Part shown: positions 7,222 through 26,406 of the stretch, piece after piece
How positions within the stretch are numbered: position 1 is the stretch's first letter
How the letters are laid out: every line of letters starts with the position of its first letter
The notes under the pieces: model-generated
The model's input: only the letters and a program-made list of their open reading frames with translations
Databases searched by the model: none
What the model was told of the DNA's origin: nothing
Made by a program: the position numbers and the translations under genes
DNA from: Minisyncoccota bacterium
GTDB taxonomy: Bacteria > Patescibacteriota > Minisyncoccia > Phycocordibacterales > JAGLOS01
DNA length: 55,864 nucleotides
Assembly: GCA_023137615.1 (NCBI GenBank)
Contig: JAGLOS010000002.1
Coordinates: 1 to 55,864 of the forward strand
Direction of reading: 5' to 3'

Positions 7222-7674
7222 TAGGAAGGGGGAGGACTTGGCGCCGCTTCTAAATTTACACTTCGTGCTTCACACTTGTGTTCATTAAGAGTCCTCGACC
7301 CTGTCGCTCCGCTCCGAATTTTCGTTTCTCAGATTCGGACTTCGTGCGGATTTTTTTCAGGTCCTCTTCCCGGCAGGCACGGGACTTGGTCACGAGTCAC
7401 TAATCCTTTTGTTCGTCCTATTGGACTCCAAAACGCTAAGTGCTCTCCTCCTTACAGGAGCTGTCCACTCATTGGATCTTTTGTTTCGTTTCACTCACAA
7501 AAGCTCTCAATGAGTCTTGCGAAGCTCCAAGTATTCGCTTCTCACCCCGACTCGCAGCCCCTTCTCCTACACTTCGTTACGGAGTGGGGACCCGCTGCTC
7601 CGTCTTTCAAGTCCTCTCCCCGGCAACAAATAAACGGTGATAATGCTACACATTACCACCGTTTATTTGTATTG
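7222..7674 (+). repeat. tRNA-flank repeat module converging on tRNA-Leu(TAG), ending in an inverted copy of that tRNA's 3' end plus a hairpin
   Basis: It contains a T-arm-like fragment (7356-7375 TTCAGGTCCTCTTCCCGGCA) and a structured family copy (7448-7605). A perfect 20-nt copy of the tRNA 3' end sits at 7606-7625, and a 14-bp hairpin at 7626-7639/7657-7670. The ORFs listed here are translations of repeats. Confidence 0.75.
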
Positions 7675-8037: not shown

Positions 8038-8400
8038 GGACTTGTCCCACGATTACTAAGTATCGCTGGACCTGCCTGTCGGTAGGCGCGGCTCGGCGAC
8101 AGGTACTCGCTTCGCTCGTTCAAATCTATTGTCGTCACAAGTCACTAAGCATATTTTTCGTTCTCGCAAGGCGGGCTCAAAGATAAACACAGGACTTGTC
8201 CCACGATTACTAAGTATATTTCTTCACAAAGCTCCTTCAAATTTCTTGTCGTCACAAGTCACTAAGTATATTTTTCGTTCTCGCAAGGCGGGCTCAAAGA
8301 TAAACACAGGACTTGTCCCACGATTACTAAGTATATTTCTTCGCAAAGCTCCTTCAAATTTCTTGTCGTCACAAGTCACTAAGTATATTTTTCGTGCTTC
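8038..8400 (-). repeat. Tandem repeat, 117-bp period (about 3 units, the first a 154-bp variant), downstream of tRNA-Lys
   Basis: Units start GGACTTGTCCCACGATTACTAAGT at 8038, 8192 and 8309. Units 2 and 3 are nearly identical. The 39-aa periodicity in ORF 8129-8578 is an artefact of this repeat. Confidence 0.85.
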
Positions 8401-8517
8401 GCACTCAAATCTACTAAGTGCTCGCGACCCCGGCTCACCTATTTTTCTTCCATTTCATTACAGAAAAATTATGGTTCCGCCTCGGACAAGCGTCGCAAGC
8501 AAAGCAGTTTGCTTGCT

Positions 8518-8552
8518 AAAACAAAAGCACCCTAAACGGGTGCTTTTGTTTT
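8518..8552 (-). terminator. Hairpin/terminator downstream of tRNA-Lys
   Basis: 15-bp stem AAAACAAAAGCACCC / GGGTGCTTTTGTTTT with loop TAAAC. A- and T-runs make it usable in both directions. Confidence 0.75.
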
Positions 8553-8559
8553 GCGCTTG

Positions 8560-8632
8560 TCCGCCCAGTAGGACTTGAACCTACGACCGTTCGCTTAAGA
8601 GGCGACTGCTCTACCAACTGAGCTATGGGCGG
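8560..8632 (-). tRNA. tRNA-Lys(CTT): tRNA-Lys (anticodon CTT)
   Basis: The reverse complement has D-arm GCTC-AGTTGGTA-GAGC, anticodon loop CTCTTAA and T-arm GTAGG-TTCAAGT-CCTAC. The acceptor is CCGCCCA/TGGGCGG, an unusual C1:G72 pair. Confidence 0.85.
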
Positions 8633-8763: not shown

Positions 8764-9028
8764 GAAAGCAAAGCAGTTTGCTTTCTCCTCGGGCACAAAT
8801 TACTAAGTATTATTCGGAGCAAAGCTCCTCAAATACTAAGTACCCCCTTCCTTACAGGAACTGTACACCTTTTGGATATTTTATACATTCGCTGCTCTCA
8901 TTTTAAAATATCTCAAAAGGTTTTACAAAGCTCCAAGTGTTCGCTTCTCACCCCGCCTCGCAGCCCCACCTTCCGCTTCGCTACAGGTAGGGACCCGCTG
9001 CTCCGGCTTTCGACCCCCGCTCCGTGCT
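8764..9028 (+). repeat. tRNA-flank structured repeat (family copy B) converging on tRNA-Leu(TAA)
   Basis: It holds a mini-hairpin GAAAGCAAAGCAGTTTGCTTTC (8764-8785) and hairpins at 8848-8860 and 8867-8921. The conserved block GCTCCAAGTGTTCGCTTCTCACC follows. It ends with TTCGACCCCCGC (9009-9020), an inverted copy of the tRNA T-arm. Confidence 0.75.
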
Positions 9029-18001: not shown

Positions 18002-18085
18002 GCGTCGGTGGCGGAGTGGTCAATCGCGGCGGACTGTAAATCCGCTGACTTTATGTCTACGTTGGTTCAAATCCAACCCGGCGCA
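18002..18085 (+). tRNA. tRNA-Tyr(GTA): tRNA-Tyr (anticodon GTA), type II
   Basis: Acceptor GCGTCGG/CCGGCGC, anticodon arm GCGGA-CTGTAAA-TCCGC, a long variable arm and T-arm GTTGG-TTCAAAT-CCAAC. Confidence 0.9.
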
Positions 18086-18087
18086 CA

Positions 18088-18129
18088 AAATACCAAAACC
18101 AGAGCGAAAACTCTGGTTTTGTTGTATTT
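18088..18129 (+). terminator. Hairpin/terminator after tRNA-Tyr
   Basis: AAATACCAAAACCAGAG / CTCTGGTTTTGTTGTATTT with one bulge. The outer stem sequence resembles the hairpin at 23381-23424. Confidence 0.75.
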
Positions 18130-18133
18130 GTTA

Positions 18134-18152
18134 CGCCGGGTTGGATTTGAAC
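18134..18152 (-). repeat. Inverted copy of the tRNA-Tyr 3' end
   Basis: CGCCGGGTTGGATTTGAAC is the exact reverse complement of 18066-18084 (19/19). Confidence 0.85.
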
Positions 18153-18263
18153 GACGAAAAGTTAAATTCGACTAGGGATTGTAAAAGAAATATTTTATTG
18201 AAAATTATTTATCCACTGAATTTTTTATGTCTCTCATTCTCTCTTGGTATAATATAATTACTT

Positions 18264-21765: not shown

Positions 21766-21960
21766 CATATGTAACAACGCCTTTTGGGGCGTTTTTGCAT
21801 ATGTGCCGGAGAGCAAGCAAACCGCTTTGCTTGCGTGGGAGAATCGAAAGGCGGAGCTATATCGCACGGAGCGTAGCGAGTACGACAGCGAGCCCGGGTA
21901 GGAAGCTCTTAGTGTTTTTAAGCTCTGCAAGAGCGTAAAAAATACTTAGAGACTTGACGC
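21766..21960 (-). repeat. tRNA-flank module: hairpin, split inverted copy of the tRNA-Leu(CAA) 3' end, and family body
   Basis: TGCCGGAG (21804-21811) is the reverse complement of 21758-21765. GGGAGAATCGAA (21837-21848) is the reverse complement of 21746-21757. The mini-hairpin GCAAGCAAACCGCTTTGCTTGC (21813-21834) separates them. The body resembles the reverse complement of 7427-7600. Confidence 0.75.
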
Positions 21961-22062
21961 CGATTCGCCCTACTGCAAAAACAAAAAGAATCCTTTTTTA
22001 TAAAAACGAATTGATCAAGATATTCACATACATTCATAAAAAGTACGTGATATAATACACGC

Positions 22063-23031
22063 ATGCAGAAGATTCGTGTGGGAGTTTTAAGAGGGGGAAC
22101 AAGCTCGGAATATGATATGTCTCTAAAGACGGGAGATGCGGTTCTTGCCGCACTTGATACAAACAAGTATGTATCGAAAGACCTATTGATAACAAAAGAT
22201 GGCACATGGCATGTAAATGGTTTTTCTTCCTCACCTGAGAAAATAACTCGTGAAGTCGATGTTGTATTCAACGCGCTTCATGGTGAATATGGTGAGGACG
22301 GAAAAGTACAACAACAGCTTGAGGCATTTAATATTCCATATACGGGATCTCGTATCGTGCCGTCGGCCATTGCAATGAATAAGGGTTTAGCAAAGCACTG
22401 TTTTGAATTTTATGGATTCAAAACTCCCAGAAGTATCACGGTGAAAAAGGGGGATGATATACAGAAAGCGCTCTTGCTTTTTTTCCAAGAAGTGTCCGGA
22501 AGACATGTGGTCAAACCGCTTACCGGCAGGTTGTCACTTGGTATTGGAATAACAAATAGTTTTGAGGAGCTTTTTGATGCGGTAGAAACGGTATTTAAAG
22601 AAAACGAAGCGGTGCTTGTTGAAGAATATATAAAAGGAAGGGAGCTAACATGTGGTGTTGTGGACGGACTCGGCAAAGATGATAATTATTCTCTTTATCC
22701 CATAGAGATCGTGAAAGAAGAGTCAGAAGGGGTCTGTGGATGCGGATCAAAATACAACGGGCAAATACTCGAAGTGTGTCCCGCAAATCTTGATGAGAAA
22801 CGGTCAAAAGAAATCCAACGGCTTGCGCTTGAGGCGCACAAACAGATAGGTCTTCGTCACTACTCACGATCTGATTTTATAGTAACGGGAAACAATATTT
22901 ACCTTCTTGAAGTGAATAGTTTGCCGTGGCTTGCGCCCGAATCACTTCTTCCAAAATCCCTTAAAGCCGCGAATCTTGAATTTCCCGAGTTTGTAGATTA
23001 TTTACTAACCCTTGCATTAACAAAGAAATAA
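22063..23031 (+). CDS. ddl: D-alanine--D-alanine ligase
   Basis: 322 aa: KIRVGVLRGGTSSEYDMSLKTG, FNALHGEYGEDGKVQQQLE...IPYTGS, and an ATP-grasp C-terminal part (LLEVNSLP). Confidence 0.9.
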   Translation: MQKIRVGVLRGGTSSEYDMSLKTGDAVLAALDTNKYVSKDLLITKDGTWHVNGFSSSPEKITREVDVVFNALHGEYGEDGKVQQQLEAFNIPYTGSRIVPSAIAMNKGLAKHCFEFYGFKTPRSITVKKGDDIQKALLLFFQEVSGRHVVKPLTGRLSLGIGITNSFEELFDAVETVFKENEAVLVEEYIKGRELTCGVVDGLGKDDNYSLYPIEIVKEESEGVCGCGSKYNGQILEVCPANLDEKRSKEIQRLALEAHKQIGLRHYSRSDFIVTGNNIYLLEVNSLPWLAPESLLPKSLKAANLEFPEFVDYLLTLALTKK

Positions 23032-23107
23032 GATATAATATTCAGCACTTGGTTTTTCAAGTATTTAAAAATTATATAGTTAGTAAATTTAAAAGAATTT
23101 ACTTCAC

Positions 23108-23181
23108 GGGCCCGTAGCTCAGTTGGCTAGAGCACCTGTTTTGCACTCAGGAGGTCGCAGGTTCAATTCCTGTCGGGTCCA
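23108..23181 (+). tRNA. tRNA-Ala(TGC): tRNA-Ala (anticodon TGC)
   Basis: GGGCCCG acceptor with the G3:U70 pair, anticodon loop TTTGCAC (31:39 is a T:T mismatch) and T-arm GCAGG-TTCAATT-CCTGT. Confidence 0.85.
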
Positions 23182-23700
23182 CAAAAACCAAAATCCAAGC
23201 GATAGCTTGGGTTTTGTTGTTTTTGCGAGACCCGACAGGAATTGAACGGCGCAAGGCGGTATACAAGACGACCGTAGGGAGTGCTTGTCGCCGCGCCGCG
23301 TCCAGCAGTACTTATGAACTTGGAGTCCCGTAGGGCGAACAAGCGAGTTAGTAACTGCGGGACAATTCCTCTATGTCCACAAATTACCAAAACCGAAGCG
23401 TCTGCTTCGGTTTTGTTGTAATTTGTAGGACCCGACAGGAATTGAAAGACGGAGCAGGGGTTCCCTGCCTGTAGCGAAGCGGAAGGTAGGGCTGCGAGTC
23501 AGGGTCGTGAGCACTTAGCGTTTTTGGAGCATGAAAGGAGAACAAAAAGCTTAGTGACTCCTGACCAATTCCTCTAGGTCCACAACGACAAAAAAACTCG
23601 CGTATGCGAGTTTTTTTAATGTCGTTGTGGACCCGACAGGAGTTGCGACATTGTTTCCCTGTGAGCTTGTGAGTTAGGGTGCCTTTGTTGTGAACAGCCA
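23182..23700 (+). repeat. Three tandem modules of about 200 bp derived from the tRNA-Ala 3' end
   Basis: Inverted copies GACCCGACAGGAATTGAA(C) lie at 23229-23247 and 23428-23446, with a decayed one at 23628-23645. Decayed direct copies lie at 23361-23381 and 23561-23584. Hairpins lie at 23183-23225, 23381-23424 and 23583-23628. ORFs 23163-23390 and 23384-23701 are artefacts. Confidence 0.8.
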
Positions 23701-23788
23701 CGGCTACACCGGGGGTAAATTTATTCTAACTATGATAAAATAGGAGTATTATCGATAATTATTCTCAATTTGATATTTCTTGTAATAT

Positions 23789-24430
23789 ATGAATTTTTTA
23801 AGTAAGTTCGGTGGCAGTAATGATAAACTTGCGGACAACGTTGATGACGAAGGATCTTTGGATCCTTCTGACAAAGAAGCGGAACAGGGTCTTTCGGAGA
23901 TAAATGATGCGATCGTGTATTTGCTTATTGATACTTCTGGGAGTATGAATGGTGTAAATTTGGATGCGGCGAAAGAAGGCGCGAGAAAATTTGCTTTGTC
24001 TGTAACAGAAAAAGGTCATTATGTAGGACTTATTTCTTTTGATTCATATGCGGAATATATTTCAGATCCTGTCAACGATATACCGACGATCAATCGAAAA
24101 ATTTCATTACTTAATACAGGAGGATCAACAAATATGAGCGACGCTTTTAATATGGCGTATACATGTTTTGAAGATATAAAGCCGGACCTTGCCACTGTTG
24201 TCGTGGCAACAGATGGTATGCCTGATTCAAAAGAAGATACCATACGTGCGGCAGATAAACTGAAGGATGTTGGGGTGACCATTATAACGATTGGAACAGA
24301 TGGTGCTGATGAAAATTTTTTGAAAAAAATTGCGTCGGCTAGTGACCTTGTGAGTGTGGTGGATGGAGAAAATTTCGAAGAGGCGATCTCGAAAGCGTCT
24401 GATAACATTATGCTCACTGATGGATCATAA
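23789..24430 (+). CDS. von Willebrand factor type A (vWA) domain protein, cytosolic
   Basis: 213 aa with MIDAS residues DTSGSM (DxSxS), GGSTN (T) and ATDGMPD (D). No signal peptide. Confidence 0.85.
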   Translation: MNFLSKFGGSNDKLADNVDDEGSLDPSDKEAEQGLSEINDAIVYLLIDTSGSMNGVNLDAAKEGARKFALSVTEKGHYVGLISFDSYAEYISDPVNDIPTINRKISLLNTGGSTNMSDAFNMAYTCFEDIKPDLATVVVATDGMPDSKEDTIRAADKLKDVGVTIITIGTDGADENFLKKIASASDLVSVVDGENFEEAISKASDNIMLTDGS

Positions 24431-24588
24431 TATCTCGTTTTTTAGGTTTTTGAAGATAGTCAAAAAAACGTTTTAAATAAAGGATGAATTCGTTGCATGA
24501 ATTTGTTTTTTGGGTATATTGGAGATATACTGATGTGTATTAGATTCGGTCTAAAAAATACGACAATACACTGGCAGACGAATCATAA

Positions 24589-26406
24589 ATGTTGCATTCC
24601 ATGAACGATAATGATTATTACGAAATTCTTCAAGTGCATCCAAAGGCAGATCAGGAAATGATCAAGAAGGCTTACAAGTTACGCGCTTTTAATTGTCACC
24701 CGGATCGTAAAGGAGATGATGCAAAGCTCAAAAAAATTAATGAAGCTTACGGGGTATTGAGTGACCCGAGCAAGCGAGCGGTATACGATGCAACGTATGG
24801 TGGTTCTCCTTCGTCTGTATCTGGCGGATCAAGGAACGCCGCGGCTTCTGCGGGTGCTACTCAAAGATCGTCACAACCTCGATATGGCACTCAAAGAAAG
24901 GATTATACTACGTCGCACTCAACATCATATTCGGGTGGCAGTGCGACCTATAATAATCCTAGCGGCGGTACAACACCTGGAGCTGCTCCATCCTCACCAT
25001 CATCATCCGGTCCCCAAAAGTCGAGTAATTCTTTATTGGCGCTTTGGTATCAGTTCACATACTATACCGGACAACTGCTCTCTTTTTTAGGGCAAGCTGT
25101 TGTCGGGGTTTTTGTATTTTTTATACTTTATGGCATTATTGCACCGATCATTGATCTCGTACTGTGGATATTTGGTAACAGACACTGGCTAACCGAGACG
25201 TTTATCGGACTCTTCTTCTTTTCAGGAATACTTGCCATTTTATTGTTTATTGTAAGCGAAGCAACGGGTAGCCCTAAGTATAGAAAGGTAAGTTACGTGA
25301 TGGGGGCTGTTTCATTGGTGGTGTTTTTGGCAGGAGAAGGAATTCCCGCTGCGTATTCTCATCGATTTGGAGGGGGTGATGTAGCCGATACGTATGAAAT
25401 TCATAAAATTATTCCGGCGGCAGTTACTGAAGGGTCATCGTATGTGAATAATGCATCGTATCTTCAAAATAAACAGAATCTTACATATTCAGAAGTAAAA
25501 GTATTGCAAACCGTCCTTGCAAAGGATAAGAGTATCTATCCGGAAGGATATATCACAGGGACATATGGTGAGCTTACTCATAATGCCCTCATTCGATTCC
25601 AAAAAAAGTATGGCTTGTCCCCTGAAGGATATTATGGTCCGCAAACAGAGGCAAAGATAAAAGAGGTCTTTGGTGTCACAATTGCTGTTGTACGAACAAC
25701 TACAAAAAATACAGCGACTGCACCGACTCCTGTGGCACAAGAATATCTAACACTTCGTTTTGTAAACCAATATGGTATCTCATATGAAACGCATCCTAAT
25801 AGTAGAAGCATGTGGAATTCAAAGACCCATCTTACAGACACTCTGGACGAAACGGTGGTGGGGAAGTTTCGATGGGATCAGAAAAATGGGTATTTTAAAT
25901 TTGACCAAAAAATATCTGAAAAACAATATAATGTTGTTTGGGAAGCCGGTGCGACCGAGTATGAGATCGACCCGAGTGATTACAGATCGGATGCTATTTG
26001 TCGAGGACACGATAGCGGTTCACAACTGATCACTTATAAAAAAAACGCTACATCACCGATCGTTGTCACCATCCCTCAATTAGGTACGGAATATTCACAA
26101 TTATACACAATCATATCGGTCATAAATGAGGTGGGTACTCCTGTGTCATATGTGAAAGGTGGGATATATGATTCAAATAATAATAAAATTGGGAGTGTGT
26201 GGACATTTAGAGGTGAAGAAGCAACTCATTCTTATTCTTGGGGATACAATACACTTCCGGGGGTTTATACACTTGAAATAACGGCACCATCCTATAAGCA
26301 AAAGATACTCTCTGTCACGATACCGGATCTTTCAAAATTAACCAATACACAGATCATTGCGTTACCCAAAATAGACTTAGGAGATATTGTATTGGAAAAA
26401 GAATAA
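24589..26406 (+). CDS. J-domain membrane protein with an extracytoplasmic peptidoglycan-binding domain and a beta-sandwich C-terminus
   Basis: 605 aa. It has an N-terminal DnaJ J-domain with HPD ([10 protein letters not shown]), an S/G/P-rich linker and several TM helices. The PG_binding_1-like motif is [10 protein letters not shown]...[20 protein letters not shown]. The C-terminus looks carboxypeptidase-regulatory-like. Confidence 0.8.

Follow-up and report, generated by a model that had tools for sequence, protein, structure and literature searches.

Genes for transfer RNA (tRNA) and transfer-messenger RNA (tmRNA) are the targets of genomic islands, prophages and integrative and conjugative elements (ICEs) whose tyrosine integrase uses the stretch between the T-loop and the 3' end. 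Integration restores the gene and leaves its displaced 3' segment as a direct repeat on the far side, and repeated insertion builds stacks in which the newest unit lies beside the tRNA. Direct repeats of this extent reportedly typify tRNA-integrating elements, among which 'sublocation' classes are said to be distinguished. In this work we describe a family of small (~140-200 nt) gene-less elements located at tRNA 3' ends in one order of Parcubacteria-type candidate phyla radiation (CPR) bacteria, and in particular the array of such elements that follows tRNA-Ala(TGC) at positions 23183-23715 of a 55,864-nucleotide stretch of DNA (the window; contig JAGLOS010000002.1, assembly GCA_023137615.1) from a Minisyncoccota bacterium. 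Each unit is composed of a hairpin, an antisense arm complementary to the end of the neighbouring tRNA (positions ~54-75), a folded core with two stems (P2 and P3), and a direct arm repeating that end (position 56 to ~75). The array was read as a stack of three separately acquired members, formed by serial insertion of a mobile or formerly mobile structured element. This reading, to which we give somewhat better than even chances, is supported because different subfamilies stand in one stack, occupancy of tRNA genes is patchy and unit boundaries are precise.

The units are similar to tRNA- and tmRNA-targeting islands in the respects mentioned above. They differ from them in being only 140-200 nt long, with no protein and no integrase of their own (Pfam), in standing at about 20 tRNA genes of one 0.77-Mb genome that has a single Xer-type recombinase, and in carrying an antisense copy of the target along with a conserved three-way-junction fold. 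A second parallel is offered by CTXphi and other integrative mobile elements exploiting Xer (IMEX), which use a folded single-stranded attP hairpin and XerCD at dif; CTXphi reportedly integrates there by means of a folded single strand. The order predicted for such elements (hybrid site, short loop, inverted arm, body, hybrid site) is alike, tandem arrays are common in both cases, and the sole recombinase here is a host Xer-type enzyme. In contrast to IMEX, the target is a tRNA 3' end and not dif, the arms vary with the tRNA and phage genes are lacking, the analogy being one of layout only. Integron cassettes are also small units with an imperfect-palindrome site, attC, stacked serially with the newest first; attC, which has conserved extrahelical bases, is recognised by its single-strand fold and not by its sequence, and is said to recombine as a folded single strand. 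However, models of the integron integrase IntI scored 138.6 and 93.2 bits, under their cut-offs of 265 and 435, there is neither an attI platform nor cargo genes, the units lie behind many separate tRNAs, and their arms copy the target.

Of the 34 tRNA genes of the source genome (G000; 0.77 Mb in 45 contigs, 96% complete, ~40% G+C), about 20 had behind them a terminator-like hairpin and then a conserved body set between an inverted and a direct copy of the gene's own 3' end, and at least 19 units are carried by this genome. A covariance model of the core, R1, gave matches in 120 of the 151 genomes of the order, with up to at least 21 per genome, and in 10 of 251 genomes from a phylum-wide sample; this core is essentially order-specific. 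No R1 match was obtained in the same-genus genome G001. When the 30 best loci were considered, one per genome, 26 showed the unit behind a co-oriented tRNA, and the other four end at contig ends. The distance from tRNA to unit was 49-85 nt in 21 loci and 214-287 nt in five arrays, and more than 15 tRNA identities were represented (among them Ala, Glu, Leu, Ser, Tyr, Lys, Thr, Phe, Trp, Gln, Pro, Gly, Asn, His, and Arg). Every strong R1 match in G000 sits behind a tRNA. Copies of tRNA ends distant from their own tRNA were not found in G000, all of them lying within ~450 nt, which indicated that large islands are absent. No match to the family was found in Rfam 15 and no description of it in the literature searched; in PMC9897764 the tRNA fragments considered are those of islands alone.

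Further R1 matches in the window were located at 7230-7618 (Leu-TAG), 8360-8492 (Lys-CTT), 8932-9021 (Leu-TAA), and 21836-21971 (Leu-CAA). At 18087-18153, the hairpin behind tRNA-Tyr is one of the family and precedes an inverted repeat of that tRNA's 3' end (19/19), but body and direct copy are both missing, so that the unit may be minimal or truncated. The genes for tRNA-Lys-TTT (C1:56233-56430) and tRNA-Lys-CTT (window 8430-8632) have identical 3' halves and are also identical over ~145 nt downstream, which suggests a recent conversion or duplication that included the trailing elements.

Fourteen units, including the first two behind tRNA-Ala and units of relatives, were aligned and folded with MAFFT/RNAalifold. 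The consensus was a three-way junction, and compensatory changes were displayed by 24 of its 33 pairs. Its closing stem, P1, joins the inverted and the direct arm by base pairing of their T-loop/T-stem parts; P2 contains a conserved CGGAG/CGAG internal loop and a variable hairpin, and P3 is a long hairpin with the conserved motif CTTAG...CTTAGT. Among 49 covariance-model matches, 95.6% of cells were paired and 32 of 33 pairs changed on both sides (340 cells); none of 500 shuffles equalled this value and slid partners paired in 33-43% of cells. This second alignment is fitted to the model and favours structure, and the independent MAFFT/RNAalifold alignment agrees with it. G-T pairs outnumbered A-C pairs (37 vs. 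11) and the fold was more stable on the tRNA-sense strand in all seven units tested. From these two results we infer that the strand under constraint is the tRNA-sense strand, either as RNA or as single-stranded DNA. An element of ~100 nt (GAGAAGCGAATACTTGGAGC...GGACAGCTCCTGTAAGG) was found nested in P3 of several units (~7448-7546, minus strand, and G000 C41 and C44); it also stands alone in the congeneric G001 (L011, 240-350), a genome without the main family.

The fold is the point at which a different explanation deserves attention, namely that we are dealing with resident genes for structured RNAs, or with cis-acting trailers of the tRNA, whose closing stem is built from the T arm of the neighbouring tRNA, with roles in tRNA transcription, processing, stability or as decoys, and that they have spread by local duplication and gene conversion only. 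The massive covariation and the excess of G-T over A-C on the tRNA-sense strand are in accordance with it, and the internal loop of P2 might resemble a protein-binding G-A motif; against this, only 4 of 26 loci retain the complete acceptor/T minihelix, which means that mimicry of a tRNA end is not conserved. Units are always co-oriented with the tRNA and just downstream of it, and terminator-like hairpins come after them, but a terminator-like hairpin also separates the tRNA from every unit and no promoter-like site was seen inside the units. The presence of the family in 80% of the genomes of the order would also fit a resident gene, whereas the congeneric G001 has none, occupancy of a given tRNA is patchy among relatives and the subfamily found there differs. 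Finally, no mobility enzyme was found in the genome among the families searched, yet the mixed-subfamily stacks, truncated units and nested inserts resemble insertion debris, and the precise duplication from position 56 to 75 is a signature at the DNA level. We hold this explanation to be unlikely, although it retains a real share of the probability.

The composition of the stack behind tRNA-Ala was compared with the rest of the family by blastn and by alignment. The second body had 88% identity over 135 nt to the element behind tRNA-Asp (G000 C8:7389-7523) and 83% to that behind tRNA-Leu-GAG, whereas the only match between modules 1 and 2 was of 35 nt. In the alignment, module 2 was grouped with units behind tRNA-Asp, Leu-GAG, Leu-TAG, and Leu-TAA (subfamily A), and module 1 with units behind tRNA-Val, Met, Ser-GCT, and Lys-TTT (subfamily B), which have the motifs GAACGGCG...CCGCGTCCAGC...TTAGTAAC..GGGAC in common. 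Module 3 fell in a third alignment group. It is truncated, its inverted arm is interrupted by a small hairpin insert, and a probable body stub follows. The insert, called 'E' (GCGAC-TTGTTTTCT...AGAAAACAA-GTGCC..TGTGGT), also comes after the inverted arms of tRNA-Arg-TCG (C6) and of the second tRNA-Asp unit (C8), and a further copy lies inside the tRNA-Lys-TTT array (C1). As judged from these comparisons the three modules belong to different subfamilies and are not diverged tandem duplicates of a single module. The period of ~200 bp is, on that account, the unit length of the family and not the mark of a local triplication.

The original prediction had described three tandem modules of about 200 bp and regarded their bodies as diverged copies of one module. 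The layout was confirmed by ARAGORN, Rfam, the repeat coordinates, and shuffled sequences. The 17-mer copies lie at 23228, 23428, and 23629 (spacing of 200 and 201 bp), the distance from the tRNA end to the first direct copy is 199 bp, and equivalent points are overall 199-201 bp apart. With up to two mismatches, the 16-mer GACCCGACAGGAATTG occurred four times in the window as compared to 0.04 times in shuffles (0 of 100 shuffles reached four), and the 621-nt stretch folded well beyond shuffles on both strands (z = -12.8 and -12.2 for the plus and minus strands, respectively). Descent of the bodies from one tandemly copied module was not upheld. One module triplicated in tandem and then diverged, with its antisense match held by selection (for instance as an antisense regulator of tRNA-Ala), would account for the regular period, for inverted arms better kept than direct copies at this locus (Table 1), for the way in which inverted arms follow tRNA-Ala in relatives and for the derived changes shared by the two direct copies, which suggest a common history or conversion within the array. 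But body 2 is far closer to the tRNA-Asp and Leu-GAG elements than to body 1, each of the three subfamilies has members at other tRNAs, the period is plainly that of the family, and in the family as a whole direct arms are no less well kept than inverted ones. Such a triplication is already largely refuted and was considered highly improbable.

Coordinates of the tRNA gene, of the inverted (IR) and direct (DR) copies of its end, and of the other parts of the stack are collected in Table 1.

Table 1. Features of the tRNA-Ala locus, in window coordinates; fractions are positions that match the tRNA, by complementarity in the case of IR copies.
Feature	Coordinates	Strand	Description
tRNA-Ala(TGC)	23108-23182 (ARAGORN); 23108-23181 (Rfam, 67.9 bits)	+	CCA not encoded
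tRNA-Ala segment recurring as direct copies	23164-23183	+	tRNA positions 56-75; from sequence
tRNA-Ala segment recurring inverted	23161-23180	+	tRNA positions 53-72; from sequence
Hairpin 1	23183-23225		Member of the recurring hairpin family; terminator-like on both strands
IR1	23229-23247	+	Inverted copy of tRNA positions 53-71, 19/19
Module 1 core	23234-23373	+	Three-way junction, subfamily B; R1 covariance-model match of 100.1 bits
DR1	23363-23381	+	Direct copy of tRNA positions 56-75, 17/21, with a 1-nt deletion
Hairpin 2	~23381-23426		Same family as hairpin 1; terminator-like on both strands
IR2	23428-23446	+	Inverted copy of tRNA positions 54-72, 19/19
Module 2 core	23434-23576	+	Three-way junction, subfamily A; R1 match of 129.9 bits
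DR2	23566-23584	+	Direct copy of tRNA positions 56-75, 18/21, with a 1-nt deletion
Hairpin 3 (AACGACAAAAAAACTCGCGTATGCGAGTTTTTTTAATGTCGTT)	~23583-23629		80-81% (blastn) to hairpins in G016/G026
IR3	23625-23645	+	Inverted copy of tRNA positions 56-76, 20/21
Nested small hairpin insert 'E' (GCGAC...TGTTGT)	23646-23692	+	Appears from the alignment to interrupt IR3 at the T-loop end
Putative third-body stub (GAACAGCCACGG..., cf. GAACGGCGGAG)	23693-23715	+	From sequence; weak, presumed

The hairpin family to which hairpin 1 belongs has the pattern ACCAAAAyCnnAGC...GCTnnGGTTTTGTTGT, and other members are found behind tRNA-Asp, Tyr, Ser-GCT, and Leu-GAG. The resemblance of hairpin 2 to the tRNA-Tyr hairpin, pointed out earlier, was borne out by 80% identity to 18084-18131, and identity to the tRNA-Asp hairpin reached 86%. 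GCGAG precedes IR1 and leaves a small mismatch opposite the discriminator, while GTA precedes IR2 and creates a boundary, GTAG with a bulged A, that is recurrent and present also at other units. In the predicted fold the T-loop/T-stem part of DR1 pairs with IR1 and closes module 1 (P1). The bodies after IR1 and IR2 are folded and have 113-114 nt each. No third direct copy was recognisable downstream of the stub, which adjoins the promoter region of the VWA-domain gene (Pfam VWA; 23789-24430). On its other side the tRNA gene is flanked by the D-Ala-D-Ala ligase gene (ddl), whose product had its closest relative, at 44% amino-acid identity, in a sequence labelled Candidatus Parcubacteria. The units at 23234-23576 have 52-56% G+C as compared to ~40% genome-wide. 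Two antisense open reading frames of the units gave no Pfam matches. In a search of Rfam 15 over 22000-25000 (E up to 10), the tRNA alone passed, the rest being far under the gathering cut-offs (E 0.0035-9.6), and the bodies matched no Rfam family, intron and retron families included.

The limits of the duplicated segment were sharp where the direct copy was intact. In 13 of 18 loci with an R1 core the direct duplication starts at tRNA position 56, right after a conserved ...TGAC, and in 21 of 23 loci it ends 0-4 nt past the discriminator, with a length of 18-22 bp. The segment that is invariant in both arms is that of the T-loop and T-stem, which forms the closing stem P1. A mini-hairpin of 22 nt (GCAAGCAAACnGCTTTGCTTGC and variants) splits the inverted arm exactly between its acceptor and T-stem parts at 21813-21834, the site at which the D and anticodon arms leave a real tRNA; it was also found behind tRNA-Phe, Met, Val, and Lys of G000 and in L014, L017, L023, L049, and L050.

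Elements that integrate at tRNA genes are classically recognised by a direct repeat of the segment between T-loop and 3' end, and the units could on this ground be taken for scars, similar to the remnant attachment sites of cis-mobilizable elements (CIMEs), of larger integrase-bearing islands, large-serine-recombinase islands included, the copies of the tRNA end being leftovers of attL and attR. Genes for large serine recombinases were present in 94 of the 151 genomes, and ~19 of 30 such loci adjoin the 3' end of a convergent tRNA or tmRNA. Neither adjacency nor association was found, however. No R1 match lay within 1.5 kb of 30 serine-recombinase genes, the two features showed no association among the 151 genomes (counts 76/44/18/13, odds ratio 1.25, p = 0.68), and G000 has at least 19 units and no serine recombinase. 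Moreover, the cores are conserved folds evolving by compensation and not random leftovers, the antisense arm is left unexplained by an island scar, and serine integrases are not known to create 20-bp direct repeats. We consider an origin as island scars very unlikely. The serine-recombinase islands were also considered as autonomous partner of the units and ruled out on the same two grounds, which makes them a system of their own. Their genes (430-640 aa; loci L092-L118 of the same order) have the 3' end facing the 3' end of the convergent tRNA or tmRNA in the ~19 of 30 loci mentioned.

At tRNA-Ala, the inverted copies were near perfect and the direct copies weaker, as had been noticed before. 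From this uneven decay it had been concluded that complementarity to the tRNA 3' end is what is preserved, which holds for tRNA-Ala and not for the family: in 26 loci from 26 genomes the mean match to the tRNA was 14.5/21 for inverted arms and 14.8/21 for direct arms. If an arm is counted as intact with at least 16/21, intact direct arms were found in 16 of these loci, intact inverted arms in nine and both in four. In G000, a perfect inverted arm with a short direct arm was seen at tRNA-Ala, Asp, Leu-GAG, Leu-TAG, and Ser-GCT, all of which except Leu-TAG have a repeated hairpin-plus-inverted-arm unit and the recurring hairpin. Perfect direct copies were seen at Gly-TCC, Glu-CTC, Phe, Val, Met, His, Thr-TGT, and Ser-GGA. 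The uneven decay, in which the displaced direct copies have lost matches outside the part required for P1, is a real but local pattern. It also rests on few independent events, because three of the differences from the tRNA are common to DR1 and DR2 (CCTGTCGGGTCC to CCTCTA[T/G]GTCC), so that the seven differences of these copies are not seven independent events. A possible cause of the local pattern would be homogenisation of the array together with correction of the palindrome against the selected end of the tRNA.

The encoded CCA was tried as a marker of polarity, distinguishing the original from the new end, and was rejected as inconsistent, the CCA being in the far copy in L080 and in the near copy in L074 and L084. 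Related tRNA-Ala genes without a unit (L011 of G001, L061, L066, L072, and L079) encode CCA and the window gene (23181-23183) does not; the relation between CCA and units was again inconsistent (L074 vs. L080).

Seventeen relatives provided tRNA-Ala(TGC) loci for comparison. The co-variation of the inverted copies with the tRNA-Ala gene, on which the original prediction depended, was observed in all parts of the arm: the T-loop part was AATTGAA, ATTCGAA or AATCGAA, the T-stem part CAGG or GAGG, and the acceptor part GGACCCGA or GGACCAGA, each matching the local tRNA-Ala. The number of units was not fixed, relatives having 0, 1, 1.5 or 2. Eight loci (L011, L012, L016, L018-L021, and L025) were without any small insert, several with just a terminator; L015 had only a different small insert that does not belong to this family; and six (L010, L013, L014, L017, L022, and L023) had other subfamilies at tRNA-Ala. 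Two direct copies were present in some loci. In L010 (G016) the inverted arm was chimeric: its T part fits tRNA-Ala, but in the acceptor part (AGAACTCTAC) it agrees with the tRNA-Glu-CTC unit of G000. Metagenome contigs with an identical tRNA tail included sites without a unit, one unit that is complete and has a perfect direct copy (L080), and an array of 1.5 units (L056). In another (L082) a second family was nested in the direct copy of the unit, and other contigs had other kinds of small insert.

Two further kinds of small insert were observed behind tRNA-Ala in metagenomes. One (L062, L069, L077, and L081) duplicates the tRNA from the D-loop onward (CTCAGTTGGCTAGAGCG...). The other (L064, L065, L074, L082, and L084) is a small family with arms matched to the T-loop, in the order G(G)AATTGAA ... 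GTAA(T/G) ... followed by 5-19 nt that repeat the T-stem/3' end of the tRNA, beginning at position 56 or 60; it is this family that is nested in the main-family unit of L082.

The hairpins of the stack differed in their affinities. The tRNA-Ala gene together with hairpin 1 was 91.6% identical in the same-genus G002, and hairpin 3 was homologous to the hairpin located directly 3' of tRNA-Ala in G016 (L010) and G026 (L012). DR2 together with hairpin 3 resembles the end of the tRNA gene and its terminator in these two genomes, and is probably a former gene end with its own terminator. The two resemblances taken together fit insertion at the tRNA, with older material pushed downstream. The repeated units behind tRNA-Leu-GAG are identical, as is a 65-nt end-hairpin-arm block behind tRNA-Ser-GGA, and such identity in the sequence points to recent duplication or insertion in G000.

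Serial insertion of separately acquired members would proceed as follows. Each unit would enter at the junction of tRNA positions 55 and 56, which is equivalent to entry immediately behind the discriminator; the intact tRNA would be regenerated, the older end and older units being displaced downstream, and the unit adjoining the tRNA would be the youngest. As a speculative mechanism suggested by the layout, a folded single-stranded circle (arm A, hairpin, arm A', body) could exchange one strand with the tRNA gene at the 5' edge of arm A. The integrated order (direct copy, hairpin, inverted copy, body, direct copy) is exactly the product predicted for that exchange. The model would also explain why a long palindrome surrounds each hairpin, why P1 can form as an alternative pairing, why the boundary at 55/56 is sharp, why the fold favours one strand, and why the newest unit of a stack stands beside the tRNA. 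A more specific proposal, which we make tentatively and regard as improbable, is that the element's own folded nucleic acid picks the target: the antisense arm would pair with the sense strand of the tRNA gene between T-loop and 3' end, a host enzyme (perhaps Xer-type) or the core itself would join the single-stranded form at 55/56, and the arms could be re-matched to new tRNAs.

Several results weigh against insertion as the origin of the stack. Reverse transcriptase (PF00078), serine recombinase (PF00239), and Y1/HUH (PF01797; controls positive) were absent from G000, IS110-type and TnpB-type enzymes not being searched for, and the sole recombinase of this genome (PF00589) is a Xer-type tyrosine recombinase encoded on another contig. 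A near-identical pair of filled and empty strains was not found in an exact-flank search of metagenome contigs, and G001 and G002 are too diverged for comparison at the base level (ddl ~75% at best); insertion was, for lack of such a pair, inferred from distant relatives. Arms borne by the element would both have to be rewritten on moving to a new tRNA, and one possible intermediate was seen, the tRNA-Glu-like acceptor part of L010. Gene conversion between resident elements could also give high similarity of bodies across tRNAs. The intact inverted arms and the changes shared by DR1 and DR2 are unexplained by simple serial insertion with neutral decay, and strong purifying selection on the fold would equally fit an RNA beneficial to the host.

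Other classes of small repeat were also compared with the family. MITEs (miniature inverted-repeat transposable elements) as well as repetitive extragenic palindromic (REP) sequences, their bacterial interspersed mosaic elements (BIMEs) and REP doublets forming hairpins (REPINs) are likewise multi-copy intergenic elements rich in hairpins and devoid of genes, at times nested or arrayed, with compensatory upkeep of the fold. The terminal repeats of MITEs, however, are element-specific, shared by all copies and derived from a parent insertion sequence, and are accompanied by target duplications of 2-10 bp, whereas here the arms follow the tRNA and the duplication is of 18-22 bp; REPINs need the REP-associated tyrosine transposase (RAYT, Y1), and PF01797 is absent from G000. 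As regards retroelements such as group II introns and retrons, PF00078 is absent from G000 and there was no Rfam intron or retron match. With both arms intact the units also resemble tRNA-like RNA ends (the tRNA-like domain of tmRNA, viral tRNA-like structures, and signals of the type of MALAT1-associated small cytoplasmic RNA, mascRNA), having an acceptor/T-stem helix of 17-19 bp that ends at the discriminator. Unlike in those RNAs the T-loop is base-paired instead of free, only 4 of 26 loci keep an intact acceptor part in both arms, and no Rfam match was obtained.

If the family is mobile, it would be a very small site-specific insertion system in which target recognition resides in exchangeable, target-copying arms. 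It would be active in genomes without recognisable transposases, and would bear on the plasticity of reduced CPR genomes and on the tolerance of tRNA genes to invasion. Programmable DNA insertion is another field for which it may matter, as a naturally programmable system of ~150 nt, if the arms retarget. If the units are RNAs, they would form a large, conserved and unannotated class tied to tRNA expression in a major radiation of uncultured bacteria, with up to at least 20 copies per genome of 0.6-1 Mb. Either way, the partial tRNA copies confuse tRNA annotation, the long palindromes break assemblies, and the presence or absence of units is a fine-scale marker between related CPR lineages.

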